NCBI GenBank assembly: GCA_963745035.1
Contig: CAVUVW010000013.1
Span: forward strand, 832,001 to 896,000
Direction: 5' to 3'
DNA from: an uncultured delta proteobacterium
GTDB taxonomy: Bacteria; Desulfobacterota; Binatia; UBA9968
DNA: 64,000 bases
Shown in pieces: positions 20,368-46,261 of this stretch. The position numbers and the translations under genes were made by a program. The first letter of the stretch is position 1, and each line of letters starts with the position of its first letter. A model generated the notes under the pieces. The model did no database searches and was not told where the DNA came from. It worked only from the letters and a program-made list of their open reading frames with translations.

Positions 20368-20406
20368 GAGTGTCTCCCTGCTTGCTCGTTTAATGCAGGA
20401 ATCATC

Positions 20407-20478
20407 TCACCGCTGAGACGCTGAGGACACGGAGACAATAGTCTAAAACACTCTGCGACCTCTGTGCCTCTGCGGTGA
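20407..20478. repeat. REP-like inverted repeat (CACCGC.GAG...CTCTGCGGTG)
   Basis: tcaccgctgagacgctgagg...cctctgtgcctctgcggtga. Confidence 0.65.
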
Positions 20479-20487
20479 CATCTTCTC

Positions 20488-25020: not shown

Positions 25021-27716
25021 TTGCCACCTCCGACCGACAGATGAAACACGCCATGCTCGGCAAAGTTGGGGTCGTTGTCACAGCGCGCGATCTCCAGCCG
25101 CCCGAGCTCGAGCTTGCCCGCCGCGAGCGCTTTGTTATCCGGTGTGCCCTGGCGCTGAAATTGATTCACCTGCACCGACATCACGCCCGGCACCGCCTGC
25201 GCCGCGGCGATCAGCGGGCTCGAGATAGACAGTCTGACCGAAGGTGAATCGGTCGGGGTGAAACACGCCGAACCTGCCGTCGGAAAGCGCGCGATTGCTG
25301 AAGAGCTTGAGCAGCTCTTCTTTCACGTGGGCGCGAAAATAGTCGGGCTCGGCGCAGACGTGCATGTCGATCTCCAGCGACACATAGCGCGGCCCGTCGA
25401 CTTCGAGATCGTGTCCGGCCATGCGATAGCGCTCGACATGGCGGCGAATCGAATCCTCGAAGTCGTCGTCCATCGGCGCGCCGCCCAGCCGATCCACGGT
25501 GATGAACACCGTGTGCCAGCTGCCGGTCCAGCGAAACGTCGCGATCGCGCGCTGCACGCCCGCATGCCGCTCGGTTACCGCCGCGTAATCCGCCTCGGTG
25601 ACGGCGCGCTCCTGGGTGCGAAATGCCGCCGGCGCATAGGCGCGCACTTCGGCAGTCGTCTCCGGTTCGATGCCGCCAGCGGCGGGCAGAGGGTTTCGCA
25701 CCAGGCGGGTCTCGGCGCGGAGCGCCGCGTCTTTCGTGAACAGATGCGCGATCGCTTCGGCGCCGACGTTGCCGGCCGCGCCGTTGCCGATGCGATACTT
25801 CGCTGTGAAAGCGCTCAACTCTTGCGGCCGCGCGCCGAGCCGGCCATCGCCGAAACGCAGCCGCGCGGTGCCGTTGTCTTCGATCTCCGCGACGAAATGC
25901 GGATCGATGGCGCTGCTGTCGAGCAGATCGCGCACCGGCGTCCATTCGATCTCGTCGAGATTCAGTTTGCTTGCCAGCCGCGCCGCGGGGAGCGCTCGGC
26001 GCGGTTCCTGCGCTGCGGCGCCGCGCTGCCGGAGCCGGCAGCGGATAGACGTTCAACTTTCCCTGTTCTTCCTTGATGCTGAAGCCGCGCCGGCTATCGC
26101 TGATCGACCAGAACGGTTGCGTTCCTTGGATCGAAGCGCCGCCGGGGAAGCCGATGCCGACGGCTTCGAATTGCTCTTGCAAAGCAGTTGGCAAAATCTT
26201 GTTATCGAGATCGGCGGCGTCCTGCGCGCCGGGTGTAAAGCCGAAGAGCAGCGAGCTTTCCGTCAACGTAGCGAACGTCAAGGGCCGCGCCACGAATTTG
26301 GGACGGAAGCGCACCGGCAGCGCGATCGGATCCTTGGGCTCGCAGCGATCGCAAGTCGAGGCGGTTGTTTTTGCCAGCGGCGCCTTCGGCACTTCGCCCA
26401 GCGTTTGCTCCACCGTCCTGCCGTGATCGGCGAGGACGATGTTGCCGCGCGCCACGCTCACGTCTTTGATGAATGTCCCGCCGTGGGTGCTGTCGGTCTG
26501 GGCCGAAATGCACAGCGGAAACGGCAGTGCGTCCGCTTCGCCCCAGAAAATTTCGCTGATCGCCTCGCCGGTCAGCAAATCAGTCAGCGGCTGTCCGTCC
26601 AGCATCCAAAGTCTCCACGTGGGTAAGTCGTACGGCGCAGCGGTGCGCCGGGTCGGCATCCTCCGCTCGCCCGGTGCGCGGGCCGATGACCTCTTCGAAG
26701 ATAAGCACGTCGCCGGCCTTGAGGTTGAGCAACGCGCCGCGCAAGGTCGCGTGGGTCGCGCCTTTGGGCAAGCAACAGCGCTCGTCGCCCCAAGTATAAA
26801 AATGAATCTTGTTGTGCGCCTCGAAGAGCGGAATCGCCTCCATGGTTTCGAACACTTCCAGCGCCTGCGGCGCGCACGGTGGCGTCGTCGGCCAAAGCCG
26901 GCGGCTCGCCGGGGATGCGCGTAAAGAGCTGGGTCCCCGCCTCGATCACAGCCACGTCGGAGTGGACCTGCACCTGCACCCAGGCGCGCGCGTTGCAGCC
27001 GTCGTGCATCGGGTAATCGACCAGCCGCGCGTGGCGGCGCACCGAAACGCGCCGGCGCGCGGTGCCGAGATAAGCCTCCGTCGCAACGGCGTCCTGCTGA
27101 TAGCTTAAATGGTCGCCGACGTAGGCGAGCGTCTCGACCAGGGCGACGCCGAGATCCGCCGCATTGCGCTCACGCCAGTTCGGCATCAGCACCGTCATGC
27201 GGTCGAGCATCAGGCGGCGAAAGCTCGCATAGTCCTTGGCGAGATAATCGATCTCCGGTTCCGCGCGCGCGGCCGGCGGGCAATCGCATTTCGGCTGGCA
27301 ATCGAAGTCTGCCGGGCAATCGACCTTGAAAGAAAAATCCACCGCCGCGAACAATGGATCGATGCCGTCGGGCGGCGCCGCATTTTGCGCGTTCTGCACC
27401 AGCCGCAGAGTATAGATCGAAAAATCGCCGTACTTGTCGAGATCGACGCGCAGCGCCCGCGCATTGATCGTGTCCACCGCCGCGTTCGACCGCGACGATG
27501 CCGCGAATGCGCTCGCCGCCTTCGATCTGGATATTCGCCGCAGCCGAGCGCATTGGGCGCAAGATCGTTGATGAAATGCACGACGAGCTTCTTTTGCCGA
27601 TTGGCCGGATCGCTGAGCTCGATCTCGTGGTCGAGCACTTCCAGATAATCGATGCCGTTGAGCGCGCTGCCGACGAGTTGGTTGCGCCGCAGTGGGTCGC
27701 AGCAAAAATAGATCAT
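25017..27716 (-). CDS. Second baseplate J-like assembly protein (multiple indels)
   Basis: MIYFCCD...NGIDYLEV, IDYLAKDYASFRRLMLDR, YQQDAVATEAYLGTARRRVSVRRHARLVDY, RFGDG, QERAVTEADY; ends HGVFHLSVGGGK-stop at 25017. Confidence 0.85.
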
Positions 27717-28081
27717 GCGCCCAAGCCTCCGCGGCTGAACTCGGCGGTCTGGCGCGTCTGGGTGCGCCGGACGATGTACTGGATCGTCACCCGCAACGTC
27801 GCGTCGTCGTTTTCCACCTGCACCGACTCGACGGCGATCAGATCGCCGAGCCACTGCTGCAGCGCGCCTTGAATCAGGAACTGCGAAGTCGCCGCCAAGG
27901 CGTCGCTGTTGGGCGCAAAGACGAGCTGCATCAAGCCGCAGCCGAAGGTCGGCCGGTTCACCCGCTCGCCCGGCGCGGTGAACAGCACCTGCTCGATCAG
28001 GTCGCGGATGTGCGCGTCTTCGGCCGCTTCCGCCGTGCGCCCGCGCGTGTCGAAATGAAATGGATAATCGAGCTGGCTCAT
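27713..28081 (-). CDS. GPW/gp25 baseplate wedge protein (Afp9-like)
   Basis: MSQLDYPFHFD...HIRDLIEQVLFTAPGERVNRPTFGCGL. Confidence 0.9.
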   Translation of the reverse strand: MSQLDYPFHFDTRGRTAEAAEDAHIRDLIEQVLFTAPGERVNRPTFGCGLMQLVFAPNSDALAATSQFLIQGALQQWLGDLIAVESVQVENDDATLRVTIQYIVRRTQTRQTAEFSRGGLGA

Positions 28082-28399
28082 AGTCCGGTCACCCTGGTTT
28101 GCGTAAGAACGATATTCAGCGGCGTCGCCGTGGGCGACGCACGTCGCGACGCTCGATTGCAGCAGCACCGGCATGCCGCCGGCCATGATCCGCGTGGCGC
28201 CGATCAGCCACTGCGCCGTGACGCAGGGCCCGTTGCCGCCCGGCGGCGCGAACGGGCAGCCGGTGATCACGTGCGGGCTCGCCATCGTCGCGATCGCCAT
28301 ACCGTTCACCGTCACGCGCGGAAACGGCACCGCCGGCTGCGCCTGCCCGCCGTGCGCGCACATCACAGTCGCGTTTGTGTGGAGCAAAAATCCCGGCAT
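28078..28399 (-). CDS. PAAR-like (DUF4280-type) spike-tip protein (indel near 28135)
   Basis: ATVMCAHGG...GCPF...PCVTAQW...PVLLQSS..C; the corrected frame reads TPLNIVLTQTRVTGL-stop, overlapping the gp25 ATG (ATGA). Confidence 0.8.
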
Positions 28400-28460
28400 G
28401 TTGTTTTCTTCTCTTAACGTCTGTCTGCGAGAGTCAGTTGGAAAGTCGATTTTTCAGTTC

Positions 28461-28549
28461 CGTCATTGCCGCGAAAGCGGCAATCCAGGTTTATTGAGTT
28501 TCCTGGATTCCGGGTCGCGCCAGCTATCGCCGGCTTGCCCGGAATGACG
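28461..28549. repeat. CGTC-type REP-like hairpin
   Basis: cgtcattgccgcgaaagcggcaatccagg...cctggattccggg...cccggaatgacg. Confidence 0.7.
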
Positions 28550-28578
28550 CTCTTTTCTGAATCCTTCCGTCCACGGCA

Positions 28579-29145
28579 TCACGTCACCACCAGAGCGACT
28601 TTGTTGATCATCACGCTCGGCCCCATCATATCGATCGATGCGCCCTTGCCATTGTTGATGTAGATGCCCGTGTCGTTGACCACGATCATCGCGCCCGTCG
28701 GGCTCCGCAGCACGATGCCGCCCGTGCCAGGCGGCGCGGGCGCGGGGACCGGCGCCTGCATCGGCACCGGCGTGGCATCGCTGATGATGATCGCGTTCTG
28801 CAGCGTCGATTGAATGACGATGGTTTGTCCCGGCGGGATCGGCGGCGGCGCCAAGGCCGCAGGCGGCACTTCCGCGAACGCGCCCCAGAAACCGCCCACC
28901 CAGATCGGATATTCGGGATCGCCCTGCTCGAATTCCATCCACACCGCGGCGCCGACCTGCGGCACCATGTAGACGCCTTCCTGCTTGCCGGCGATCGGCA
29001 TGCACGGCAGCGCCCAGGTCGTCGGCACCAGCCCCTGCACGTCCGGCACGATCGCTTGGATGCGCCCGCGCTGCTCGGGATCGACGTTGTTGATCACCGT
29101 GCCGCGGTATTTGCCGTAGTAGCGGGTGGTTTTCTCTTCGCTCAT
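28579..29145 (-). CDS. Baseplate assembly protein V / gp5 OB-fold spike (VgrG C-terminal half)
   Basis: YYGKYRGTVINNVDPEQRGRIQAIVPDV...WALPC...PQVGAAVWMEFEQGDPEYPIWVG. Confidence 0.9.
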   Translation of the reverse strand: MSEEKTTRYYGKYRGTVINNVDPEQRGRIQAIVPDVQGLVPTTWALPCMPIAGKQEGVYMVPQVGAAVWMEFEQGDPEYPIWVGGFWGAFAEVPPAALAPPPIPPGQTIVIQSTLQNAIIISDATPVPMQAPVPAPAPPGTGGIVLRSPTGAMIVVNDTGIYINNGKGASIDMMGPSVMINKVALVVT

Positions 29146-30272
29146 GCGGCCACCTGCGGCACCGTCGAGATCAGCCCGTTGCGGCTGAGCTCGAAGCTTT
29201 GCTTGTATTCGCCGGCTTTGATTTTGTGGGTCACGCTTTTCACGTAATAAAGTCCGTCGTAGGCCGTCCCGGCGCCGCGCACGCCCACCAGCCGGCGCGG
29301 CTTCAGCACGCTGCCGTAGCGCAGCACGTCGAGCTCGCCTTTGCCGGTGACCGCTTCGGCCATCTGCGCCGCTTTGGCCAAGCCGATCATGATCGACTGC
29401 GGCACCGGTCGCTTGGACAGATCGTCGCTCACCGGTTTCAAGTGCGTCGGTATGGGCGGAATCAAACCCAGCGGCGGGTTGAGCGGCGTGATCGGCGGCA
29501 GCGGAATCGCGATCACCGCTTTGGATAATTCTTCGTAGTAAAAGACCGTGGGAATGCCGTTCAAATTGTTGTTGAAGCTGAACGACAGCGACTCGACGTT
29601 GGTGTGCGCGTCCATGTTGATGTTGAGCGCGCGCTGCGGCTGGCCGACTTTGATCTGCGGTCCCCAGTAAGCGACGTTGGCGCCCGGCGCCGGACCGGGA
29701 TCGAGATAAAACACGTAGCCGACCTTGGAAGCGAGATCGTTGATGTACTCGAGGTCGGTGCCCTTCTGCGCCGGAATGCGCGTGGTCGGAATCGGCACGT
29801 CGATGAGCACGCTCGGAATGATCAGCGGAATGAGACCCAGGAAAGCGTACTTCAAAAGCAGCAGCGCCACCCGTCCCTCGGCCGGCGTCGCCGGAAAAGG
29901 AAAGCCGCTGAAATCGATTTTGTCCATCAACACCGTCAAGTCTTCGCCGGTGATCGACAAGGTCGATTGCCCGGGCGCGCTTCCCGGCGTGATCTCGTGA
30001 TTGGTCACGACCCCGTCCATGATCACGTGCGGCGTGCCGCTGACGATGACGACGATGACGACGCGGAGAATATTGATCGGCGCGCCGCCGGTCAGAAGAA
30101 ACAGGGTGTGCAGCGGCGACTGATTGCTCACGGTGAACGAGAGTTGAAAACCGCTGCGGCCGACGTCGTTGACCGTAACCGAAAGCTCGGTGAGCGCGTC
30201 CATTACCGCCTTGGGCGCCGGGATCGGCACCAGCGGCCCGATGAAAAGCTGCAGGGTCACCCCTTTAAGCAT
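29142..30272 (-). CDS. Probable gp27/late-control-D-like baseplate hub (VgrG N-terminal half)
   Basis: Lies between the LysM and gpV genes; GEDLTVLMD, Q.GTDLEYI..LA...GY.FY, G.LD..RYG.VL, YDGLYYVKSVTHKI. Confidence 0.7.
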   Translation of the reverse strand: MLKGVTLQLFIGPLVPIPAPKAVMDALTELSVTVNDVGRSGFQLSFTVSNQSPLHTLFLLTGGAPINILRVVIVVIVSGTPHVIMDGVVTNHEITPGSAPGQSTLSITGEDLTVLMDKIDFSGFPFPATPAEGRVALLLLKYAFLGLIPLIIPSVLIDVPIPTTRIPAQKGTDLEYINDLASKVGYVFYLDPGPAPGANVAYWGPQIKVGQPQRALNINMDAHTNVESLSFSFNNNLNGIPTVFYYEELSKAVIAIPLPPITPLNPPLGLIPPIPTHLKPVSDDLSKRPVPQSIMIGLAKAAQMAEAVTGKGELDVLRYGSVLKPRRLVGVRGAGTAYDGLYYVKSVTHKIKAGEYKQSFELSRNGLISTVPQVAA

Positions 30273-30636
30273 TCTTCGGCCCCGGAATGCCCTGCGGCAA
30301 GGTGATGCGCACGGTGGCGCCGATGGTTTCGGTCAATTCGTCCGGACGGATCGCGCCGTTGGCATCGCACAATCGCCAGAACTGCTCCGGATCGCCGAGA
30401 TACTTCGCCGCGAGATTGTCGAGCCGGTCGCCCTGCACGACGGAATGCTCCTGAATCAACACGAACTCTTCCGGCGACGGCACGAAGCGCCGCTTGAGAA
30501 ACACGACGGTTCCCCCGTCCACCGTCGCAAGCTTCGCGGTGCCGGCGCCGTGATAGCGGCTGTTCGGCGGAAACTCCGCCGCGTCCGCACCGCCGGCCTG
30601 CAACATCGCCTGTAATGCCTGCATGGGATCGTTCAT
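30265..30636 (-). CDS. LysM-domain protein (tube-initiator C-terminal module, Afp7-like)
   Basis: HSVVQGDRLDNLAAKYLGDPEQFWRLCDAN. Confidence 0.82.
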   Translation of the reverse strand: MNDPMQALQAMLQAGGADAAEFPPNSRYHGAGTAKLATVDGGTVVFLKRRFVPSPEEFVLIQEHSVVQGDRLDNLAAKYLGDPEQFWRLCDANGAIRPDELTETIGATVRITLPQGIPGPKNA

Positions 30637-31289
30637 GGGATGCCTCGTATTCCCAGAAGGCTGAGCGCGCCGCCGAGACTCCTGCCGGCGAGTTGCTCCT
30701 TCTGCTGCTGGTAGGCCATGAATAGACTGCCGCCTTTGTTGTCGAAGCCGAGATCGGTCACGCTCAACACGCGCATGCCCAGACTCACCTTGGCGCGGAT
30801 CGGGTTGAGCGCCGGGTCGAAGGCCTCTTCGGTGATGCTGAAATCGGTGATGCGCACCGGCACGATGCGGCTTTTGCTCCAGATGAATAGCGGCAGCGCC
30901 GCCATCATCGGCAAAATTTCCAGCATGCCGGCCTGCGCAAGAGAATTGTTCGACAGCAGCTGGCTGCTCGCCGGATAGACGATCGTCTCCAACGCCGCCA
31001 GTTGCGGCTGGATGCCGAACTCCACAATGGCGCTGTTCTGATCGGGAAACTCCAACTGATCGGTGGCGTCGATCTCGGCGTCGAGCTTGATCGTCTCCAC
31101 CGGCGGCCCGGTGAGCCGCATCGCCTCGGCCCGGTCGCCGCTTTCTTTGACGGTCTGCGGCTGCAACGTGCGGCTCAAGGTATCGGGATTGTATTGCAGC
31201 ACGATGATGCGCCGCACCGCGGCGGTTTCCGCATCGATCAGCACGATGCCGCCCTTGAGCACGCGCGGCGAGTTGGGAAACGTGGTCAT
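30633..31289 (-). CDS. CIS tube-initiator/tube-like protein (Afp7 N-terminal-like)
   Basis: IVLQYNPDTLSR, LFIWSKSRIVPVRITDFSITEEAFDPALNPIRAKVSL. Confidence 0.75.
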   Translation of the reverse strand: MTTFPNSPRVLKGGIVLIDAETAAVRRIIVLQYNPDTLSRTLQPQTVKESGDRAEAMRLTGPPVETIKLDAEIDATDQLEFPDQNSAIVEFGIQPQLAALETIVYPASSQLLSNNSLAQAGMLEILPMMAALPLFIWSKSRIVPVRITDFSITEEAFDPALNPIRAKVSLGMRVLSVTDLGFDNKGGSLFMAYQQQKEQLAGRSLGGALSLLGIRGIP

Positions 31290-31304
31290 GATAGTTTCAC
31301 TCGG

Positions 31305-32930
31305 CTAAAATCGCCGCACGAACCCAAACTTTACGTCGGCCTTGCGCACGTCCGTCGGATCCTGCGGATTCACGCCCAGTCCGATGTTGGTTTCGAATTT
31401 TACGCCGCGGCCGATATCTACCTGGAAATCCAAGACGAATTCACCTTTGCGCACGAAGGTTAGTCCTTTAAACAGAACGCCGGTGCCGACAGCTAATTTA
31501 TCAGCCGTATCGCCTTTGAAACCGGCATAGCGGAAACTCGTCTTCAACACGTTTAATCCGAGAGCGTAGCGGGACAGCGCGTCTTGCAGAACTTCAGGCT
31601 CATCCGAATGCAGAATCGCCGCTTGATACAAATGATGCCCGTAGTCCTGAAGATTTTTTCCAACGTCGAGTTCGAGCTTGTCTAGAAATAGCGGAAGATC
31701 ACGAAGCTTCGGCTCCGGCTCGGGCTGGCGCTGAATTAGACCGGAGCGCATGGGATGAACAGGCTGAGAAGTATTCCCAATTGCCGCTGCGTCGCCACCA
31801 CGAGGTTCTGGCGTTGCTTCTGAAGCTTCCGGCGCGCCGACGCCTTGTTGGACAACGTGGGTCAATTCGTGGGCGAGAAGCCGCTGACCGGCGCGGCTGC
31901 GTGGCGCATATTGACCGGCGCCGAAGACGATGTCCTCACCCACCGTGTAAGCGAGCGCGTTGACCGCGTGCGCCGATTGCGCCGCGGCAGCGTCCGCATG
32001 CACGCGCACGCTGCTGAAGTCGTGGCCGAACCGCGCAGCAAAAAAGCGCCGCGTCTCTGCGTCCAGCGGCTCGCCTGGCGACGACAGCACGCCGCTGACA
32101 AGCGGCGCCGCATCCACCGGTCCCGCCGCGCCGAAGCTTGAGGCTCGTTGCACAATTGTCGTCGGACCGCTCGGCCGCGCGCTCCTGCATTCCCGTTTGG
32201 TTAAGACCAGATCTTCTTTCGGACAGGCGTAATCGTAAAAGCACAACGGCGTCGCCGGCGGCGGAGTCCAGGTGTTGATCGGCGCGGTCCCCACCACGAT
32301 GTCGCGCTTCCGCACAATAACGCGAATCACGAGGCCGTCGTCGAAGTGAACGTAACAGCCGTAGTTGCCGTTGGCCCGGGGTGGTTCGCAGTCGATGCTG
32401 GTTACCTTCGCCTGCGACGGCGGCGTCATGTCGTTGCGCACGTAGTGCTCGGCCGCCCGCTTGCTGATGCTCTGCGGATCGTTGAACCAGCTTGGACAGG
32501 GACTTTCTTCCTCTTTGTCCGCGCCGCCTTCGGTTTGCGCAACAGTCTCCGTCGAACCGTCCCCGCTCGGCGTTTCTTCCTGGCGCTGGACATTTTCGGT
32601 GCCGGCCATGCGTCGTTGCACCAGCGCTGTCCCGCCGAAATTCGATGGTTCGGATTGCTGATTCGGCTCCGCCGTCCGCATGACCTGATCCGCCACCCGG
32701 TCCGCTTCTCGCTCGTACGCGTCCCCGGGCTCATTGATGCGCAATTTGGTTTGCAACGGCTGCCCAAGGAGCTTCTTTCGTTCACACTCAGAACAATTCC
32801 CGCTAAGGTCGCTCGGGCCGCCGCAGGGACACTTGCGCCGTAGCAGAGCGCCATGGATCGGCACGAATCGCGAATGCGAGCTCTGCGTCCTTTCCGTTGG
32901 TGACCTGCCTTCGCTTAACCTCATCGACAA
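31305..32930 (-). CDS. DUF4157 (eCIS core) protein with an internal Cys-rich domain and an unknown C-terminal domain
   Basis: Leader RKCPCGG..CSEC, EREADRVADQVMR; core GEPLD..TRRFF..RFGHDFSSVRVH, ALAYTVG, LLAHELTHVVQQ. Confidence 0.88.
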   Translation of the reverse strand: MSMRLSEGRSPTERTQSSHSRFVPIHGALLRRKCPCGGPSDLSGNCSECERKKLLGQPLQTKLRINEPGDAYEREADRVADQVMRTAEPNQQSEPSNFGGTALVQRRMAGTENVQRQEETPSGDGSTETVAQTEGGADKEEESPCPSWFNDPQSISKRAAEHYVRNDMTPPSQAKVTSIDCEPPRANGNYGCYVHFDDGLVIRVIVRKRDIVVGTAPINTWTPPPATPLCFYDYACPKEDLVLTKRECRSARPSGPTTIVQRASSFGAAGPVDAAPLVSGVLSSPGEPLDAETRRFFAARFGHDFSSVRVHADAAAAQSAHAVNALAYTVGEDIVFGAGQYAPRSRAGQRLLAHELTHVVQQGVGAPEASEATPEPRGGDAAAIGNTSQPVHPMRSGLIQRQPEPEPKLRDLPLFLDKLELDVGKNLQDYGHHLYQAAILHSDEPEVLQDALSRYALGLNVLKTSFRYAGFKGDTADKLAVGTGVLFKGLTFVRKGEFVLDFQVDIGRGVKFETNIGLGVNPQDPTDVRKADVKFGFVRRF

Positions 32931-33054
32931 CCCACCCTCCGATAAAAAGTGCGCGTCATGCGTGCATATCCCACAAATCCTTCACCCCTCGAGCCGTGCC
33001 TTAGGATGGGTGCGACTCACAGCCCCCGCTCCTGAAAGCGATAAATATCTGCAA

Positions 33055-34488
33055 CTAAAAAGTGATATCCGAAGTTTGATTACCCGCGATACTCTTCCAC
33101 CGAGTATCCGCATCTCTCAACTCTTTCGTTGCCCCGCATTTCACTGTTGGCACCGCAGGAGTGAAATGAGGCTTGCCTGAGCTATCGATGAAGTAGCCCC
33201 AGAACAGACAGGCCAGTACCTTTTTTGAACCCATCTTGTCCTCACAGACTGCACAAGTTTGAAACGTCTTACCGACATTGATCGCGGTAATGTCATCACC
33301 AGGGGCATCCCACATGATCGCTGGCTTGGTGGCTGATCCGAGAACACTCATGTCTGTCTCACCCCGCGGTGCCGGCGTAAAAAACGGGTCTATGTCCTGA
33401 TTGGGTACGTCCACTCGCCAGCCTCTGGAGGATTCGTTCGGATCGTTCCACCCCGAACGAAGCTGACGCAATGGGTCCAACGGATCAGCTGTGATCAAAC
33501 GAGACGAATGAGGCGGCGGCAATCTCGGGTTCATTTTCGTGTTGCGCACGGTCTGAATCAAATGCAGATGAGTGCACGGACATTGAGAACGATCGTGTTG
33601 AGCCGAAATTTCCAGATATACGCCCCGTTTTTTATTGGCGTCATTGTTAAAATAGGGATATTCCCCCGCAAAGGCCCTGCCAATTTTAAACTCGACATCG
33701 CACCCGCCGGAATCAGTGCTACAGACTGCCGTATAAGTCTGTTCAAGAGTCGTCTGCTGCTGAAATAACGGGGTGCCGTTTTCATCCTTGGATCTCATGC
33801 CCTTAGATACACCTGAGCGCTCTTCGAACATTCCCCGAGTTTGTCTTCGAAGGACTGGTTGCTCGTCCGACAATGCGGCCTGCTGCACGATATGCGTCAG
33901 TTCGTGAGCCAGCAATTGTTTGCCTCGCAAAGTACCTGGCTGGTACTGCCCATCGGCGAAAGCCACATGGTTATCGACGGTATATGCGAACGCCTTCACC
34001 GCTCGCGCCGATTCCGCGGCACGTGAATCCGAATGCACCCGAACACGGCTGAAATCATGTCCGAAGCGTGGCTCGAAAAAGGCACGGGTCGCGGCATCCA
34101 GCGGTTGACCCGGCGAAGAAAGCAGGTCTCCGAAGATCGCTAGCGCGGTGGTGGGCCCAGCAGTGCTCGCGCTCACATCACGTTGCAGGGGTAGGGGCAT
34201 TGGGACCTTTGAAGCAGCCATCTCAGAAGCGGGACCTGCCATCCGCATGACCTGGTCCGCCACCCGGTCCGCTTCTCGCTCGTATTCGTCTCCCGGCTCG
34301 CCGATGCTCAATTTGCCCTGCAGCGGTTTGCCGGTCAGCCGCTTACTCTGACACTCTGAGCACTCGCCGGTCAGATTTGCCGAGCCGCCGCAGCCGCATT
34401 TGCGCTGCAAAATTCTCGGGTGCATCAAAACCGGCGAGCTCGGTGACGCCATGGAATTTTTTTGGGTCTGCAATTGCGTTTCCAACAT
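33055..34488 (-). CDS. DUF4157 protein with an unknown lower-GC C-terminal payload
   Basis: LQRKCGCGG..CSEC, EREADRVADQVMR, RFGHDFSRVRVH, LLAHELTHIVQQ, then a Cys-containing domain after LRRQ. Confidence 0.88.
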   Translation of the reverse strand: MLETQLQTQKNSMASPSSPVLMHPRILQRKCGCGGSANLTGECSECQSKRLTGKPLQGKLSIGEPGDEYEREADRVADQVMRMAGPASEMAASKVPMPLPLQRDVSASTAGPTTALAIFGDLLSSPGQPLDAATRAFFEPRFGHDFSRVRVHSDSRAAESARAVKAFAYTVDNHVAFADGQYQPGTLRGKQLLAHELTHIVQQAALSDEQPVLRRQTRGMFEERSGVSKGMRSKDENGTPLFQQQTTLEQTYTAVCSTDSGGCDVEFKIGRAFAGEYPYFNNDANKKRGVYLEISAQHDRSQCPCTHLHLIQTVRNTKMNPRLPPPHSSRLITADPLDPLRQLRSGWNDPNESSRGWRVDVPNQDIDPFFTPAPRGETDMSVLGSATKPAIMWDAPGDDITAINVGKTFQTCAVCEDKMGSKKVLACLFWGYFIDSSGKPHFTPAVPTVKCGATKELRDADTRWKSIAGNQTSDITF

Positions 34489-34558
34489 TTCACCCGTTGG
34501 CGCCCGTCATGCCGCCACGATCCAAGCTTCGCGCCGCCCGCCAAACCGCCACAAACTC

Positions 34559-35522
34559 TTAGCCATCCGGCGCCGCCTGTTTTGCCGCCGGCGCCTTGTT
34601 CACGGCGACGCGGGTCACATTGATATTTTTCGAACCCGACTTCACCACATCGCGTGTCATCGTGTAGGTGATTATGAAAGCCGGCCCGAAACGTTTGCCG
34701 CCGCAGCTGAAAGATTGCTGGCATTGAACCTCGCAGCTGTCCTTTTTGAGTTCGTGCAGCAGGCTGGCATCTTTGTTTGCGAACACATGCAGGTCGTAAA
34801 ATCTATTTTGCCCTGCAGCCAATTTAGCTTTGCCGAGAAAATTGGATTCCGCGCCGACGACGAATGAGCTGCCGGCCGTGCTCCGCGCCTGATCGCTGCT
34901 GACATTCGAGCAGGCGTTTTTCCCTTTGTCGCCGCAGGTGTTCTTGGTCCTTTTGAGGCTCTCGTGGATTGCCGTGCCGTCCCAAACTTTGCCGCTGGGA
35001 TCGGAAACTTCCATCTCAGCGATACCACCCCAGCCGTTCAGAAAACCGTTCTTGCCAAAATCGACGTCGTTTGCAGGATGGACAGCAGCAACTTGGATGT
35101 CCGACGGGCAAGTTGGGCCACCTTTGCTTCGGCGGCGGGTCCTTTTTAACTGGCGCGGGTTTGGGCGCGTCATCGGGCCCATTGATCACGATCTCTCGAC
35201 GGGCTTCCGGCGACCCGTATTGCTCCCGATACTCAAGAGCGCTGCTGTGACGAAGATGAATCACGCGTCTCGGAACGAACCGGGACACGGCTGAAGTCAT
35301 GCGTAAAACGAGCCTCCGCGCGCTGCCCATGCTCGATAAATGTCTGCGGAACAGTTGACCTTCGGGTATCGCCGAGTTGAGTTGCAGTCTTTTGCTTTGG
35401 CACTCCCCACAAACGCCGCTCATTCCCGGCGCCGCGCCGCAGGCGCATTTGCGCTGCAATAGCCCGGGAGCGGCGTGCGCAGAAAACGCTTGTCCGGTTC
35501 GTATGTGGGATTGAGCGATCAT
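34559..35522 (-). CDS. DUF4157-type leader fused to an unknown payload, without the HExxH core (several frame changes)
   Basis: MIAQSH...LLQRKCACG..CGECQSKRLQ, then RFTHDFSRVPV in a second frame, then a ~190-aa Cys-containing domain (GGPTCPSDIQ...). Confidence 0.6.
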
Positions 35523-35524
35523 CG

Positions 35525-36767
35525 TCAAACCTGCATCGCGTAGCCCGCATAGCTGTCGGGGTTGTTGATCGTGTCGTTGTTCCCCGGCAGAGAGCGAAAA
35601 AGAATTCCCAGCACCGGAATCTTGCCGAGAAAATTCAGTACGCTGCCCCAAAATCCGCCGCCTCTCGGCTTGAGCTTCTTGAAATCTGCTTCGTTGGAGT
35701 AGGCGCGATCGGTCGTCAATAACGCGTTGTGCACCGATTCGTGAATGATGGTTTCGATCTTGAAGTCGGGAGTCGCTGCTTTGTAGGCGGCGGAACAGAC
35801 GTGGAGAGCGCCAAAGCAAGTCCACATCAACCGCCCTCCGGTGCACCAGCGCTTTGACGTGCCACACAGTGTCCAAGAGCTAGGATTACAGTCAAAGCGC
35901 AGCGCGCGCATGTTGGCGCGGATGAATCGATACTTTTGCCGCACGTCGCGGACAAAGCCGTCGTCGATCTCGCCGCTGCCTGCCGGATCGAAGTATTGAT
36001 TGAATGCGGCCTTGTCCGCCGGAACCATTTTCTTCCAACCCGGATCCAGGCTGGTGATGGCGCGATCGAGATGATTCGAGTGCCGGCTGGTGCATCGCTT
36101 TCAGATCATTTTGCAGAGCCGGCTCGCAGTCTTCGGTTTCGGTGCGCGGTTGATTCGCCGGCTGCCGGCGCAAGAACGCCGGAGCTTGGCTGAGTTGCGT
36201 CTGCGCAGCGGTCGGCTCGCCGCTCGTCACCTGCGCCGCTACGCGATCGGCTTCGATCTCCGCGGCATCGTTCGCCGCGCCGATTTCGAGACCCGGCTGC
36301 ACGCTCGCGGCGCTACCGGACTGCTGCACGACGTGCGCCAGCTCATGGGCAAGCAAACGCCGCCCCTCGGTGCTCTCCGGCGCATAACGCCCCGCATCGA
36401 AGGCGATGTGCGCTCCGACGGTGTATGCCTGGGCACCTACCTCCTTGGCGGAGTTGGCTGCGAGGTCGTCCGCATGAATCTGTACTTGGCTAAAATCATG
36501 GCCGAACCGCGCCGCAAAATATTCTCGTGTCGCGGCGTCGAGAGGTCGGCCGGGCGCGCGCAGCACTTCGTGTACGCTTGCCGGCGCCAAGCCCTGGGTT
36601 TTTCTTCCTTGGTGCAAATGATTTTTTTGGCACGCATCGCAGTCCCCGCTCAGGCCGGCAGTCCCGCCGCAGGCGCATTTGCGCTGAAGCAAGGCTGCAT
36701 GAGGCGCCGCCGACACTCGCGCCCCATGTCCGTCGAGTTGATTTGCGCTTTGTCGCTGTAGTTCCAT
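35525..36767 (-). CDS. DUF4157 protein fused to an M35/aspzincin-like metallopeptidase (indel near 36070)
   Basis: LQRKCACGG, RFGHDFSQVQIH, LLAHELAHVVQQ; C-terminal TIIHESVH, TTDRAY and NNPDSYA. Confidence 0.82.
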
Positions 36768-36770
36768 GGA

Positions 36771-37135
36771 TCAGCGCTTCGAGCTCTTCGTTGCGCCGAG
36801 ACTCGGCATGGGTTCGACAAGACTCCGCTGCACGGCCTGCGCGATTTCCCGGCCGATGGCCGGCGCGCCGCTGCTCGCTTCGAGGAAAATTGCGCCGCCG
36901 TCGACCCGCGCGCGCGCGCCCGCGCGCAGCGCCTGCGCCAGCTCGCCGTCGCCGAGCACGGACACGAGCTCGCGCTCCAACGTTCCGGCGAGCATGTTTC
37001 CATCGCGCACGTCGATGCCGCGCAGCACCACCTCGCCGATTTCGAGCGTCACGGCGGGCCGCGCCGGCGCCGGCTCGTCGATGCGCGCGCGGAAATCGTC
37101 TTGCGCCATGCCGCGGCGCGCGCGGCGTCGTAGAT

Positions 37136-37139
<4 letters not shown>
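36771..37139 (-). CDS. Conserved small eCIS-associated hypothetical protein
   Basis: VTLEIGEVVLRG...LERELVSVL...IGREIAQAV; ATGA overlap with the ATPase stop. Confidence 0.65.
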
Positions 37140-39095
<1,956 letters not shown>

Positions 39096-39099
<4 letters not shown>

Positions 39100-40337
39100 G
39101 GTAAAGTCACCGTCGGACCGAAATTGGCGCTCGCCGGGTCGAGATCGACCACGCTTTCCGCGCCGTCGATCTGCAGCCGAACAAAATACTCGCCGGCGGC
39201 GGCGCCCGGGACCGGGATCGTGACGACGTTGGTGTCGGCGAGCCGCGGCGGCAGCAAAAAACTGTACGACGGCGCACTCCCCGCGGCGGTGGAATTGAGC
39301 AGCAGCACGACGCGCTGTTCCTTGCCGACGGTCAAATCGACGGTGAGCTCCAAGGCCGGCAACGGCGGCCCGCCCTGCGGGTCCGGAGCGTTCGTTTTCA
39401 CGATCGGCAAGTTGATCTGCGGCCGCAGGACAAACGTCGCGACGTTGGACTCGAATCCGCGGTGGGGCGTCCCGGGCGGCGGGCTGCCCAGCAGGAGCTT
39501 GTGAATAACCTGGAGCGCGCGCGCTCCAGCTTGTAAATCGCCGGGCACCGGCAAAGTAATGCGCGTTGCGCCCACCGACGCAGGCGCGCGCTCGATGCCT
39601 CCGAGCAAAACTGTCGTCACGTCGCCCTGCAGTTGCTTGCCGTCGATCTGCAAGGTGCTCGTGGCGAAAATCGGCGCCGTCTCGCCCGCGGTCGAGCTTA
39701 CCTTGTCGATCACCGGCTGGCGAAACGGCATGACGTAGAGATTGCGCGTCTGCACCGGCAGCGCCGGCTGCGCCGTCTCGTCGGTTTCGATCAATACCGC
39801 GCTTCCCTGGTACGCCACGGAGAGGACATAGGGCGATTGAAAAAAAATCGACCAGACTTTGGACAACTCCTCGAGCGACAGTCCCAGCGGCGTGAAGCGC
39901 ACCAAATCGAGTTGATCGGCCAGGTTCGAGGTCGCCAGCAAGGTGTCGAACGGCGGGTTGGCCAAGGTTTGGACGATGTCTTGATGGGTCAACAGCGGCT
40001 TGGCGTGGAGCTGGCGCACCAGAGCGCCGAGCAGGCGCTGGGGCTCGAGATTGTTCTCGTCGCCGTAGAAGCTGAATAGATAATGCAAGGTGAGCGCCGC
40101 TTGCGGCCGCTGGACGACTTGACCGTTGGACCGGCGGGTCGGCAAATCGGCGTTGCGATAAGCGCCGTTCGGCATCACCTGATAGAGAAATATATTGATG
40201 GCCGGATCGCGTGCCGCCGGCGCTGCTCCGTCGGGTCGCGCCGTGCTGACCTTCGCACCCGGCACCGCCGCGGCCGCGCTCGAGAGCACATGCTGCAGCG
40301 CGCCGGTCACGGTTGCGACGGCGAGATAATTGCTCAT
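39096..40337 (-). CDS. DUF4255/Pvc16-type tail terminator (cap) with C-terminal Ig-like domains
   Basis: MSNYLAVATVT..L, INIFLYQV..N..YRNADLP, LTLHYL, LSLEELSKVWS, SVAYQGSAVLIE. Confidence 0.88.
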
Positions 40338-40954
40338 CGCCGCCCCTCGTTGCGCTCGCGCAGATATTGTTCGAGAGAAAGCCGCGCCGCGGCGCGCCGC
40401 TCCGGCACGCTCGGGCGGGGCGCGGGCGCCGTAACCGCGCGGACTTCGACCCGGCCGATGCTCACGTGGATCGCCGGCGACACTGCCGTGAAGCGTTCGA
40501 AACCACGCGACTCGCTCTGCCCGCCCCGCTGGGGCGCGGGCGGCGCAATGACCGGCTCGTGGCGTGCGAACAGACTCGCAACTTCGGTGGCGGCGGGATT
40601 TTTTCCGACCTTAGCGGCGCCGTCACCGGCCCGCGAAATCTCCTCCGCCGCTAAGGACGCCGGCGACTGCGCGCGCGGCGAACCGTCGGCAGGAACGGCC
40701 AAATCCGAAGTCCGCGAAGTTTGCTGTTCCACGTTCGCTGCCTCGCCGCGGCGTTCAACCTGCGCACGCTCCGCTCCGAAGGGATCGTCCGGTCGCCCGA
40801 AGGGGCGTAAACCAATCTCCTCGCGCGCGGCGGCGGTCGGCGCGCCGGCGCCTTCTTTTTCCGGAGCTGCTGCGACAAGCGGCGCGAAATCGGGACGCGC
40901 GACCGGTCCCACGCCCAAAGTTCGTTCGGCAAGCCTGGTGAAAAAATCGCTCAT
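40334..40954 (-). CDS. Low-complexity eCIS-associated hypothetical protein
   Basis: MSDFFTRLAERTLG; Ala/Pro/Glu-rich middle; C-terminal IHVSIGRVEVRA...LSLEQYL; ATGA overlaps on both sides. Confidence 0.7.
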   Translation of the reverse strand: MSDFFTRLAERTLGVGPVARPDFAPLVAAAPEKEGAGAPTAAAREEIGLRPFGRPDDPFGAERAQVERRGEAANVEQQTSRTSDLAVPADGSPRAQSPASLAAEEISRAGDGAAKVGKNPAATEVASLFARHEPVIAPPAPQRGGQSESRGFERFTAVSPAIHVSIGRVEVRAVTAPAPRPSVPERRAAARLSLEQYLRERNEGRR

Positions 40955-41691
40955 CCTTCCACCCTGTCGAGATAAAAGCGCCGGCGCGCCGGGCTCATGG
41001 CCAAAATATCCGCCTCGCGCCAGCCGTAAGCCCACGCGAGCGTATGGACTTCGTACAGATAGCGCTTTGCCAGCAGACTCACTTCGCTCCATAGAAATGA
41101 TGCGACGTCGAAAGCCAAATCCCAGGAATGAGCGCACGCGGCGCATTGGAGAGCAAAGGAAATGTCCGCGCAATTTTCCGATGCGCCGAGAGTGGACGAG
41201 AGCTCATCGAGCGCCTGCGCGGAAATCTCGGCGAGCGCCAGCGGTGCGTCGCCGCACCTGGCTTCGAGCACACAGCGCTCGAGCAGCAGGCTCCGCGCCG
41301 CCGCGGCATCGGCGCAGTGCGCGACCACCGCGAGGTCGGCGCTGTCCGGCGCGCGAAACGTGAGGCGCACGTCGCCGCAGACGAGCTCGCGCCGGCTCGG
41401 AGGGGCGCTTTCCCCGGTGCGCGTCAGCAGCTCACCTACGTCGGCGCGGAACTCGAGGCGCTCCTGGCAGCGCGGGCACTCGGCGTAGCAATAGAGCGCC
41501 GGCCCGAACAGCGCTTCGCGCAACTCGAGCAGGCAGGCATCACGCCGGCCCACCGGCAACGCGGCGAGCTCGGCAAAAGTCATTTCAGGATAAGCCGCAG
41601 CGAGCAGAGTCAGCGCCCGGTCCACCGGACGGTGCGAGACTCCCGCTTCCCACGCGCCTATAACTTGTGCAGCACTTGGTGGATGCATCAT
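40951..41691 (-). CDS. Phage baseplate protein-like / tail assembly factor with CxxC motifs
   Basis: LPVGRRDACLL.LR...FG, CPRC, CAAC, EVHTLAWAYGWREADILAMSPARRRFYL. Confidence 0.72.
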   Translation of the reverse strand: MMHPPSAAQVIGAWEAGVSHRPVDRALTLLAAAYPEMTFAELAALPVGRRDACLLELREALFGPALYCYAECPRCQERLEFRADVGELLTRTGESAPPSRRELVCGDVRLTFRAPDSADLAVVAHCADAAAARSLLLERCVLEARCGDAPLALAEISAQALDELSSTLGASENCADISFALQCAACAHSWDLAFDVASFLWSEVSLLAKRYLYEVHTLAWAYGWREADILAMSPARRRFYLDRVEG

Positions 41692-41700
41692 GGACCTCGA

Positions 41701-42226
41701 TTATGCCGGCACGGTGAAGCTCGGCTCGGTCGGCTCGGGCACCTCGTTGTCGCGCAGCCAACCTTCGTTTTCGAGCTTGATCGACTGAATCGCCACGGCG
41801 TTGGCATTGGCGTCCAAGATCCGGCTGGGCCTGGAACTCGGACACCCAGCAGCGAAACACCTTGTAGGCGATCGCGAGCTGGCCGGCTTCGTTGTACATC
41901 TCGATGATGATGTCCTTGCGGAAATCCTTGAGCGAAACTTCCGCGCCCAAGCCAGCGCCGAAGTTCCAAACCTTATTCGCCCAGAGCTCGAACTCTTTGT
42001 CGTGGGTCACGCCCCGTTCCAGCGTGATCGCTTCGTATTTGGTCCGGCCCGGCGACTTTCGCCCGGTGCTCGGGTCGCCGCCCTCGCGGTGCTCGACCAC
42101 TTCGGTGGTGCGCTTGAGCGCGCCGACCTTGTGCACTCCGGCGACGTATTTGCCGTCCCACTTGACCCGGAACTTAAAGTTTTTGTACGGGTCGAAGCGC
42201 TGCGCATTGACGCTGAATTGAGCCAT
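41701..42226 (-). CDS. Tail tube protein (T4 gp19-like; indel near 41817)
   Basis: RFDPYKNFKFRVKWDG, VVEHREGGD, PGRTKYEAITLERGVT, FRKDIII; the corrected end reads DANANAVAIQSIKLENEGW...TVPA-stop. Confidence 0.93.
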
Positions 42227-42250
42227 GACCTATCTCCTTGATTTAGACCT

Positions 42251-42308
42251 GAGGGGCGACCGCCGGTCGCCCCTACATTCTTTGTGTTCTTTGCGCCTCT
42301 GCGGTTAA
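42251..42308. repeat. GTAG-type REP hairpin plus half of a CTCTGCGGT repeat
   Basis: ggggcgaccgccggtcgcccctac followed by tttgcgcctctgcggtta. Confidence 0.6.
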
Positions 42309-42320
42309 TTCGGATTTTCG

Positions 42321-43956
42321 CTATGCCTCGATCTGTCCGGCGATCTGCTGGATCTTGATGACCACGAACTCGGCCGGTTTGAGCGGCGCGAAGCCGACGA
42401 CGATGTTGACCACGCCGCGGTTGATGTCGTCCTGGGTCGTGGTCTCGCGGTCGCATTTGACGAAGTAGGCTTCCTGCGGCGTCTTGCCCTGAAACGCGCC
42501 CTGGCGAAACAGGTTGTGCATGAACGCGCCGATGTTCAGGCGGATCTGCGCCCAGAGCGGCTCGTCATTGGGCTCGAACACCACCCACTGGGTGCCGCGA
42601 TACAGACTTTCTTCAAGGAATAGCGTCGTCCGTCGTACCGGCACGTATTTCCATTGCGACGCCAGCACGTCCGAGCCTTCGAGAGTGCGCGCGCCCCAGA
42701 CCACATGGCCCACCGCCGGAAAGCTGCGCAGGCAATTGATGCCGAGCGGATTGAAATCGCCGTTCTCTTTATCATTGAGCGCGATCGCCACGCCGGCCAC
42801 CGAAGTGCCGGCGACGCCGCGCAAGCTCGCTTCGAGACCGGCCGGCGCCTTCCACACGCCGCGCTCGGCGTCAGTGCGGCTCATGACGCCGGCGACGATG
42901 CCGCAGGGCGCGAAGTCGTCGAGGCTGCCCTCCTGCAACGGATCGGGAATCTTGACCGTGGGGAAGTACAGCGCCGCGTTTTTGCGTACGATGCCGCTGA
43001 AGTCACCGACCTTTTTCGCCGGATAGTTGGCGCTGGAGGAATCGAGCACCCAGCCGCGCGGCGCATCGACGATCAACAAGGCGCGCCGGTCTTCGCAGAG
43101 CTTGGCGGCCTTCTCCAAGGTCCCGGCGATCGGTACGTCGACCACCGTATTGGGCACGGTGCTCGGCGCGGTAACGATGGTGAGCGGTGGGATACACATC
43201 AAATTGAAAATATCGGCCTTGAGCAGCGCGTAGATGCCGGTTTTCGCGGTTTCACTGCCCTCGATCTCCGCGGCAGCCGCCGCCGGCGTGGTCGCCGCGA
43301 CGCCGTCGTTGCCGCCGGTCGCGGTCGCGGGAACGGTCGTTTCAGCGGGCCGCGCGGTGCCGGCCGAAACCAGACGAACCAAGGTCGACTGTTCTTCCAA
43401 GATCTTGCCGACATAGCGCCCGCTGTTGGGATCCCGCGAGACATTGAGAAAAACTTCTCGCGCGCCGCTGCCGCCGCGCTTGGCGCCGTCAAGAAACTTC
43501 GCCGCATCGTCGAGAACCGTTAGATTGAAAAGATTGTCGTCCGGCGGCGGCGTGACGCTGGTCGCGTCCTTGGTCTTGTGATCCACCGTGGCGACTAGAT
43601 TGCGCCCCCAGGTGCCCGGGCTTGAGGCGCGCAGCATATTGGTGCCGCCGAGATCGATCTGCGCCGGTGCTGCGGCGTCGCCGCCGCTGCGCGCCGCCAC
43701 CCGCACCACCAGCGCCTGGCTGCCGCCGTTGGTGAAATACTGCCGCACCGCATAGCTCATCATGCTGGCGCGCCACAGGCCGCCGAAGATGCGCTCGTAG
43801 TCGGCCGCGCTATTGATTTTCACCGGCTCGTCCATCGGCCCCTTCCAGGCGCGGCCGATAAATGCCGTGATCGCCGTCGGCACGCCGGTGATCGTGCGCA
43901 CGCCGCTCGGTAATCTCCTCGATGTAAACGCCCGGATAACTCAGTGCTGCCGGCAT
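42321..43956 (-). CDS. Tail sheath protein (indel near 43910)
   Basis: GAGGAGG RBS, then MPAALSYPGVYIEEI; RGVWKAPAG, NPLGINCLRSFP, VWGARTL, WKYVPVRR, WVVFEPND, GFAPLKPAEFVVI. Confidence 0.95.
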
Positions 43957-46039: not shown

Positions 46040-46213
46040 CACGGCTATCTTAATATGGTCTTGCCGCTGAGTGTTTGCGACATTGATCATTCACTAATCG
46101 AGATCGCCGCGCCCTGTCAATATTGCACCGCCGAATTGGTTTGATCGGAGTACGGAGCGAGCAGGCCTTAGGAGTTTGGCAGGTACACGTTGCTGGTCTA
46201 AGACTTAGTCTGC

Positions 46214-46252: not shown

Positions 46253-46261
46253 GAGGGTCAA

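Follow-up and report, generated by a model that had tools for sequence, protein, structure and literature searches.

A four-gene array of putative DUF4157 cargo with a common four-cysteine leader in the contractile injection operon of an uncultured Binatia bacterium

Introduction

DUF4157 (PF13699, eCIS_core) is a core marker of extracellular contractile injection systems (eCIS), in which it is fused to toxins or encoded beside them (Geller 2021, PMC8213781). The domain has also been described as the releasing peptidase of PVC-type toxins, in which a constant zincin with the family signature HExxHxxQ-E is joined to hypervariable C-terminal toxin domains; autoproteolytic release was proposed in that account, and adjacent immunity genes are reported to be often absent for toxins of this type (Zhang 2012, PMC3482391). 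Here we analyse an array of four genes, A to D, at positions 31305 to 36767 (minus strand) of a 64,000-nucleotide stretch of DNA, called the window below, from an uncultured soil delta proteobacterium assigned to Binatia. The window is C13:832001-896000 (contig CAVUVW010000013.1) of a metagenome-assembled genome of 7.4 Mb in 28 contigs, 92.6% complete and 5.8% contaminated. Each of the four genes begins with a cysteine-rich leader, three encode DUF4157, and short tripeptides of the form hydrophobic-Q-R stand at the borders of their modules.

The closest described cargo proteins are Cgo1 and Cgo2 of AlgoCIS, DUF4157 proteins that fill the tube lumen (Xu 2022, PMC8894135) and whose loading requires the region N-terminal of DUF4157 and the AAA+ ATPase Alg15 (PROCIS, 10.64898/2026.05.27.728243). 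Like the genes studied here, they combine an N-terminal region, DUF4157 and a variable C-terminus, are neighbours in an eCIS cluster with its own AAA+ ATPase, and include one payload predicted to be a metallopeptidase. The present locus differs in having four such genes, set in the interval from ATPase to tube initiator and known from genes alone; in a four-cysteine motif found across phyla and a hydrophobic-Q-R punctuation, neither of which is mentioned for Cgo1 and Cgo2 in the accessible parts of the AlgoCIS accounts; and in an ExEAD helix that precedes the zincin core in C and D, with one member of the array lacking the catalytic helix.

Other systems share fewer features. The PVC-metallopeptidase toxins (PMC3482391) have an N-terminal HExxHxxQ..E zincin, hypervariable C-termini and several paralogs per genome, whereas their description, in its accessible part, includes neither a leader nor a cleavage motif, and the Glu helix is N-terminal in most of the proteins considered here. 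VgrG2b (6H56, PMC6899460) is a DUF4157-annotated gluzincin with HExxH and Glu as third ligand, but it is itself the toxin, fused to a type VI secretion spike, and is described without leader or payload. The PVC and Afp payloads Pnf, Pdp1 and Afp18 carry an N-terminal tag that works with a Pvc15-type ATPase and loads foreign proteins; they differ in lacking DUF4157 and the cysteine motif, and their signals are described as disordered and system-specific (via PMC11297309). In Streptomyces, DUF4157 proteins encoded with a contractile injection system (CIS) co-elute with the tube initiator or the spike, and Tme (BN159_7576) and Sle2 (SLIV_17110) bind these parts (PMC11126660; 10.1101/2025.11.06.686954), but those systems are cytoplasmic, Tme is a giant protein related to tape measures, and Sle2, a small protein, serves as adaptor to an effector of its own.

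Our analyses place the array as a further instance of the published DUF4157 cargo picture. Its four-cysteine leader, hydrophobic-Q-R punctuation and N-terminal ExEAD helix are apparently undescribed, in that we found no published description of them, although supplements may show them. Established here are the eCIS context, the constant and variable architecture, how the motifs are conserved and placed, and the modelled zincin fold. An earlier reading of the window, made from the letters alone (the sequence-only reading), had proposed a polymorphic cargo system; the context and the constant/variable layout strongly support this concept, which was already in print. The four genes very probably encode injected eCIS cargo, and the best overall explanation, to which we give a probability of about 0.6, is that the products are modular pre-effectors with a constant N-terminal region and a variable payload.

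Results

Architecture of the array

The leader, L[QR]RKCxCG-x9-10-CxxC, is present on the minus strand in all four genes, as had been read from the sequence. The description of these as four tandem genes holds for the leaders, all of which are in place, and needs qualifying for A and B, which are not single open reading frames (ORFs) in the assembly. The features are as follows; lengths are in amino acids (aa).

35892..36767, minus: gene A, N-terminal ORF; leader LLQRKCACG..CDAC at 36689-36630; PF13699 with AHELAHVVQ at 36350-36324
Gene A after PF13699, minus: EIEADRVAAQV helix, then FLRRQ; frame valid to about 36075
35525..36076 (ORF 36028-35525), minus: gene A payload in another frame; aspzincin/M35-like, with HESVH
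35364..35534, minus: gene B, leader segment; first ATG at 35522; LLQRKCACG..CGEC at 35459-35400
35263..35316, minus: gene B in a second frame, remnant of the N-terminal strand of DUF4157 (RFTHDFSRVPV), not followed by HExxH; no Pfam match
34559..35182, minus: gene B payload ORF in a third frame, 207 aa; no known family
33055..34488, minus: gene C, intact, 477 aa; leader at 34410-34351; LQGKL and the EREADRVADQVM helix; PLQRD; PF13699 with AHELTHIVQ at 33909-33883; VLRRQ; 263-aa payload of no known family
31305..32930, minus: gene D, intact, 541 aa; leader at 32843-32784; EAD helix; LVQRR and NVQRQ; Cys-rich insert of about 170 aa; IVQRA; PF13699 with AHELTHVVQ at 31874-31848; LIQRQPEP; conserved 147-aa C-terminal module

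Genes A, C and D match PF13699 with 105.9, 106.4 and 112.2 bits respectively (gathering cut-off 22), and HDFSxVxxH and AHELxHxVQ each occur three times at the locus, in agreement with the sequence-only reading. All three carry the signature of Zhang 2012, HExxHxxQ with a Glu on a further helix, in the form of AHELxHxVQQ and the ExEAD helix, and we infer that the Glu of ExEAD is the zinc ligand. The payloads are mutually unrelated, as had been supposed, with no BLASTP similarity among the four at E<=1e-5.

Gene B has no match to PF13699 in any of its three ORF pieces, and no HExxH even when read through its frame breaks. Judged from these pieces, B is a leader-bearing derivative rather than a member of PF13699, the catalytic HExxH helix having been lost. 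The same form, consisting of leader, HDFS-type remnant and payload, occurs in two Acidobacteriota loci (L037 and L055), and P0200 is a further example, with a payload that resembles that of B. A B-like payload also stands behind an intact leader and DUF4157 in P0014 (tblastn, residues 209-380, 34% identity, E 1.4e-24). Gene B therefore appears as a natural variant class of cargo.

In a six-frame search of the 7.4-Mb genome the pattern [LIVM][QRK]R[KR]CxCG..CxxC matched four times, always at the locus (36689, 35459, 34410 and 32843, minus strand). By the same method HDFSxVxxH occurs three times genome-wide, all at the locus, and AHExxHxxQ four times, three at the locus and one on another contig.

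Relatives and the distribution of the leader

The first 110 residues of C have 87 related proteins, of which 86 carry PF13699 in precomputed annotation. The strict leader pattern is present in 56 of the 87, and its CxCG..CxxC core in 12 more. Their layout is stereotyped: the leader lies near residue 23 and ExEAD about 40 residues further on, one hydrophobic-Q-R stands exactly 94 residues before HExxH, and another follows 15-55 residues after it. Between leader and core lies a second conserved element, hydrophobic-Q-x-K-L, and then xIGxxxDxxExEADRVAxQVM. A scan of one genome per species returned at least 642 pattern matches, of which 377 are confirmed relatives, and 71 loci among the matches listed provide the counts given below for listed loci. 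These 71 bear at least 10 phylum-level labels, namely Nitrospirota, Pseudomonadota, Cyanobacteriota, Acidobacteriota, Chloroflexota, Verrucomicrobiota, Deinococcota, Planctomycetota, Actinomycetota and Patescibacteria. The same scan shows the leader class in isolates too, among them Pseudoduganella flava, Denitromonas halophila, D. iodatirespirans, Nitrosomonas sp. HPC101, Nitrosovibrio sp. Nv6, Nostoc sp. WHI, Methylocaldum sp. GT1BB and Aquipseudomonas alcaligenes RU36E.

With the eCIS proteins of the window as probes, an eCIS core gene was found in 63 of the 71 listed loci (the ATPase being the sole match in 4) and none in 8. The leader genes lie between the ATPase and the tube initiator in all 39 loci where both were detected; where a single flank was detected, they are downstream of the ATPase (11/11 loci) or upstream of the initiator (4/4), while five further loci have a leader gene at their operon's 3' end. 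In 35 of the 71, the array comprises at least two leader ORFs and at most six. The N-termini of the relatives are constant, and clustering of their 116 payload regions gives 88 clusters, of which 70 are singletons; a constant N-terminal region with variable C-terminal domains, one mark of polymorphic toxins, is thus present. Within the genus, the leader is found in 6 of 31 genomes, always as one cluster of 1-4 genes, and the arrays differ between genomes.

The leader is rarely separated from DUF4157. A leader-only profile of 33 positions gave 3,636 matches at E<=1e-3 among 1.84 billion cluster representatives, and in the best 150 of these HExxHxxQ is present in 83 of the 85 proteins with at least 230 residues after the leader. 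In the listed loci, HExxHxx[QH] accompanies 109 of 115 leader ORFs. The remaining six comprise two B-like remnants, three ORFs that seem truncated or frame-broken, and one in which HExxH is continued by another residue. Since the leader almost never occurs without DUF4157, it is in nature a piece of the constant region and hardly a free tag. The portable packaging tag that the sequence-only reading had envisaged is consequently only weakly supported, although one natural chimera, P0003, does have a swapped leader: its residues 1-80 match C (73/80 identical) and residues 81-260 match D (about 155/160), with the crossover inside the invariant EADRVADQVMR helix. As this chimera indicates, leaders are exchanged between cargo bodies in nature.

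A second N-terminal motif, of the type LQ[RK]xxGNQAxLR, stands ahead of the cysteine leader or replaces it in loci L004, L005, L018 and L066, its carriers being cyanobacterial and some Nitrospira cargo genes. The N-terminal region of the cargo appears to be assembled from a few short modules.

Tripeptide motifs at module borders

The sequence-only reading had remarked on QR and RR motifs at module borders, and their enrichment and placement are real and conserved in relatives. In the cargo proteins of the window there are 9 hydrophobic-Q-R tripeptides compared with 1.3 +/- 1.1 after shuffling, an excess of about 7-fold that was reached in 0 of 1000 shuffles; for hydrophobic-[QR]-R the figures are 13 and 3.1 +/- 1.7, and again 0 of 1000 shuffles reach 13. 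The motifs are found at the leader, behind the ExEAD helix, ahead of the zincin core and downstream of HExxH; the only hydrophobic-[QR]-R in a payload is the C-terminal VRRF of D.

Among the relatives the excess in the constant part and in the linker after HExxH is 11-13-fold, a figure to be read with the caution that the sequences counted are homologous and shuffle controls overstate their independence. The 87 relatives found with the N-terminal region of C contain 298 hydrophobic-Q-R (40.1 +/- 6.2 shuffled), while hydrophobic-R-R is not enriched there (53 against 56.1 +/- 7.0). In the 108 cargo ORFs of the listed loci, hydrophobic-Q-R occurs 233 times before HExxH (18.1 +/- 4.0 shuffled) and 69 times in the 60 residues after HExxHxxQ (6.0 +/- 2.3), and payloads are near chance (21 against 19.3 +/- 4.1); the other ORFs of the same loci hold 288 (180.7 +/- 12.2). 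A motif follows HExxH within 70 residues in 68 of the 108 ORFs, in 32 of them at +15 to +19. The same pattern is seen in 31 DUF4157 ORFs that fail the strict leader pattern.

All codon families for Gln and Arg are used at the motif, including CAG and CAA for Gln and CGN and AGR for Arg, and this free usage indicates that the constraint acts on the protein. A role of the motif as a recombination signal at the DNA level is rejected on the same ground.

Predicted structure of the constant region

Residues 1-215 of C were modelled with AlphaFold2 (AF2) from an alignment of 39 sequences, with a mean predicted local distance difference test score (pLDDT) of 78.6. Confidence is 61 for residues 1-30, 78-84 for the cysteine motif (31-50), where a helix starts from CxxC, 93 for the ExEAD helix (68-82), 56 for residues 91-110, 90-97 for the core (121-200) and 54 for the last residues. 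All hydrophobic-Q-R sites of C fall in low-confidence linkers (pLDDT 54-64).

The top structural match of the core is the DUF4157 effector domain of VgrG2b (6h56_B; Z 6.7, root mean square deviation 3.5 over 96 residues, model residues 108-207), followed by further zincins (minigluzincins, M1 peptidases and HtpX) at Z 2.9-3.7. Foldseek gave no match at E<=1e-3 for this model or for that of the D module considered below, and a PDB sequence search with the N-terminal profile found at best BepA (E 0.38). On the model, the core of the PF13699 cargo is a zincin fold.

In C, D and most relatives an invariant ExEAD precedes HExxH by about 120 residues; in A (EIEAD) it follows HExxH. Approximate positions of the helix are 34270-34310 in C, 32700-32745 in D and 36240-36275 in A, both arrangements thus occurring in one array. 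Within the helix E70, E72, A73 and D74 do not vary, and in proteins of the C/D type nothing beyond HExxHxxQQ is conserved. The third zinc ligand of VgrG2b is likewise a Glu (E983), 44 residues after HExxH (PMC6899460). From this pattern of conservation we infer that the helix with the third ligand has moved to the N-terminal side of the zincin in C, D and most relatives.

Payloads

No NCBIfam model matched any cargo gene of the array, and sequence searches of the PDB yielded no meaningful match for any of the four payloads, with no peptidase among the results for A. The payload of A matches PF14521 weakly, at 20.8 bits (E 5.4e-4) in the window ORF and 23.8 bits (E 6.6e-5) in the intact ortholog of genome G006, both under the cut-off of 30 bits. 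The payloads of B and C had no match in Pfam, NCBIfam, PDB sequences or the ESM Atlas, and that of C is confined to 6 proteins, each with PF13699. Domains such as M35, OmpA-like and PG_binding_1 occur in relatives of the N-terminal region, and G006 carries DUF922; these hint that bacterial envelopes may be one target of the payloads.

The C-terminal module of D (31305-31748, 147 aa) is of another kind, having 63-96% identity in 95 of 98 proteins (full range 63-100%), with records labelled Nitrospira and Binatia among its carriers. It was found in 0 of the 71 listed loci, and the idea that it is a core part of this eCIS lineage is rejected for that reason. The model of the module has three helices and a four-stranded sheet, one of five AF2 models reaching pLDDT 84.2 and the rest 54-60, and a wide structural search gave no clear fold match (best Z 5.8; NTF2/cystatin-like rows near Z 4). 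Most of 23 relatives devoid of a peptidase domain also have its junction, L[IM]QRQPEP, and a hydrophobic-Q-R persists in 21 of the 23; most of these relatives have an N-terminus of the type HPLLRLQQxIGNRAVAR and a CARDB-like domain.

The operon

A Pfam scan of the window ORFs recovers a complete Afp/PVC-like eCIS operon on the minus strand (17152..43901), of which the array fills the interval between ATPase and tube initiator:

43901-42321, minus: sheath (Pfam)
42226-41585, minus: T4 gp19-type tube (Pfam)
40337-39096, minus: Pvc16_N, cap-like (Pfam)
37136..39099, minus: AAA+ ATPase with N-terminal winged-helix domain (Pfam winged-helix and AAA), directly upstream of the array
36767-31305, minus: cargo array, genes A-D
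30633..31289, minus: tube-initiator-like gene (Pfam CIS_tube, 5.3e-5, under the cut-off of that model); conserved neighbour in 44 of the 71 listed loci
29145-28579, minus: gp5/OB spike (Pfam)
28399-27713, minus: gp25 (Pfam)
Between gp25 and the fibre gene, minus: baseplate genes (TIGR02243; Baseplate_J in the G006 ortholog)
20367-17152, minus: DUF6519/beta-helix fibre (Pfam)

Sheath, tube, gp25, spike, Pvc16_N (DUF4255) and AAA+ ATPase, by which eCIS clusters are recognised, are all present, and no capsid genes lie near the cluster among the ORFs scanned. The nearest named relatives of the sheath, at 90% identity, are labelled Candidatus Binatia and Chloroflexota. Intergenic gaps in the array measure 2, 70, 124 and 15 nt, the last separating the stop of D from the start of the tube initiator, and leave no space for immunity genes; the cognate immunity gene expected beside each polymorphic toxin is thus absent from the array. 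A scan of the array for promoters and terminators gave no more sites than shuffled sequence. Identity to the same-genus loci L080 and L081 is 83-98% for tube, spike, sheath, hub and tube initiator, 69-76% for the AAA part of the ATPase and 54-63% for its winged-helix N-domain (38323-39099). By these identities the loader evolves faster than the machine, and the N-domain is the fastest-evolving conserved part, with 63% identity between same-genus genomes where structural proteins have 91-98%.

An ORF of 139 aa at 36771-37190, between the ATPase and gene A, may not be a gene. It has no homolog in the 71 listed loci or the two same-genus loci and for this reason is not counted as part of the system. 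[quoted passage not shown] The operon has a G+C content of about 0.64-0.67, which drops to 0.50-0.54 at 46000-50000, where an HNH endonuclease ORF (48309-49196) is found; this region may be the edge of an island.

Discussion

The order of parts suggests how the products might work. Each would consist of a short polar N-terminus, a four-Cys knuckle (LQRKCxCG-x9-10-CxxC), the ExEAD helix, a zincin core (PF13699, HExxHxxQ), a linker that ends in hydrophobic-Q-R, and a variable payload: an aspzincin-like peptidase in A, domains of no known family in B and C, and a widely conserved alpha+beta module in D. By analogy with Cgo1 and Cgo2, the constant N-terminal region would address the cargo to the AAA+ ATPase encoded just upstream, and this would load it unfolded into the tube lumen. 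That the leader is a loading signal is plausible on this analogy, and the chances that the cysteine-leader region takes part in loading are about even. The zincin would then cut at exposed hydrophobic-Q-R linkers, shedding the addressing part and freeing the payload, with B cut in trans by the zincin of a neighbour. Gluzincins usually take a hydrophobic residue at P1', and the hydrophobic residue of the motif would occupy that position. These cuts are proposed from the placement of the motifs, and we regard the identification of the motifs as cleavage sites as rather unlikely. Less likely again, though of wider reach, is that the Cys4 leader and the hydrophobic-Q-R punctuation form a cross-phylum addressing-and-processing code of one major eCIS lineage, the knuckle acting as handle and the zincin with its relocated Glu as cutter.

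Several observations weigh against the proposal of loading followed by cleavage. DUF4157 is dispensable for loading in AlgoCIS (10.64898/2026.05.27.728243) and the toxicity of Cgo1 is reported to be independent of its HExxH motifs (PMC8894135), so that, as far as the accessible parts of these accounts go, a peptidase role has been shown in no system. Loading regions are described as disordered and not conserved between systems (10.64898/2026.05.27.728243); the present leader shows conservation from phylum to phylum and a moderate predicted order, and may for that reason be something other than a loading signal. The divergence of the ATPase N-domain is unlike that expected of a receptor for an invariant leader. 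The dependence among the homologous sequences counted also tells on this side, as does the fixed distance of the tripeptides at -94 and +15 from HExxH, where they could mark structural domain ends.

Broken reading frames belong with these points. Relative to intact same-genus orthologs, gene A changes frame once, at about 36075/36076; B is spread over three frames, with several changes at 35126-35364; the ATPase is represented by two overlapping ORFs, its frame broken between 38416 and 38377 by two changes; and the Baseplate_J-type gene (25216-27562), one ORF of 927 aa in G006, has at least six. Were the array and operon decaying in this strain, these four genes would be pseudogenes and no particle would be made, and it fits such decay that Logan contigs from three independent metagenome studies (soil, rhizosphere and winery), 90-99% alike, differ by single-base indels at these places, with one base fewer at 38377 and 38414 and indels in gene B whose net effect would join the frames of leader, remnant and payload. 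We nevertheless hold decay to be improbable. The segments retain 53-85% amino-acid identity to orthologs in every frame, with no decay beyond the shifts, and another few-contig genome of the genus splits its ortholog of D, both of which point to indels of assembly. At least six shifts in 2.8 kb are judged typical of uncorrected long-read assembly, and C, D and the sheath are unbroken. The ortholog of A in G006, of the same genus, is one ORF running from leader through DUF4157, ExEAD and LLRRQ to the aspzincin-like domain, and the parts of the ATPase share one open frame in 41 of the 44 listed loci that have both. Most probably, then, the breaks are assembly indels.

Three further explanations concern the function of the parts, and the first two are each a serious possibility if short of an even chance. 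The hydrophobic-Q-R tripeptides may be linear motifs at module junctions, serving as grip or pause points for the AAA+ ATPase, as contacts with the tube lumen or initiator, or as module caps, and kept by exchange of cassettes rather than as sites to be cut. This would explain why L[IM]QRQPEP persists before the D module in relatives without a peptidase, and would suit both the fixed spacing of the motifs around HExxH and the crossover of P0003 within the constant region; the accessible accounts of Cgo1 and Cgo2, moreover, mention no processing. Yet cargo without a peptidase could be cut in trans by its neighbours, a peptidase with one and the same exposed tripeptide on either side has the look expected of an autoprocessing enzyme, and the free codon usage excludes that the junctions are marked for recombination at the DNA level. 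In the second explanation Cys4 knuckle and ExEAD helix belong to the structure of this zincin subfamily, respectively as a zinc-stabilised lid or pro-segment and as the relocated third-ligand helix, and the signal proper is the polar and poorly conserved stretch of the first 20-25 residues, as in PVC/Afp cargo. The near-constant company of leader and DUF4157 (83/85 and 109/115) speaks for this, as do the invariant residues of a helix modelled at pLDDT 93, with nothing conserved after HExxHxxQQ in the C/D type, the position of the same helix after HExxH in A, as for E983 of VgrG2b (PMC6899460), and the finding that eCIS signal features lie within the first 35 residues (Danov 2024, PMC11297309). 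It is hard to reconcile with B and with the L037, L055 and P0200 forms, which keep the leader though the catalytic helix is gone.

The third explanation, which we consider doubtful, is that some of the cargo, D above all, is conserved accessory or structural cargo rather than toxin, for example a tape-measure-like protein or a membrane- or lipid-binding helper at the tube initiator that aids the delivery of the others. The identity of the D module across its carriers is far above that of other payloads, the payload of C being confined to 6 proteins; D directly precedes the tube initiator, at a distance of 15 nt; and Streptomyces DUF4157 proteins bind tube initiator or spike, some being related to tape measures. 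Set against this are the absence of the module from all 71 listed loci, by which it is no core part of the lineage, and a fold that matched nothing clearly and was modelled confidently only once in five. Modular pre-effectors remain our preferred account of the array.

The function of DUF4157 and the recognition of cargo are two questions about eCIS that this locus and its relatives make concretely testable. If the motifs are neither handle nor cut site, the array is one more DUF4157 cargo cluster. If they are handle and cut site, the role of the commonest eCIS marker domain would be explained, and a general loading tag for chosen proteins would be at hand. Should the reading as a code be true, thousands of natural systems would share a single short tag and a single cleavage rule, which could be carried over to engineered cargo.

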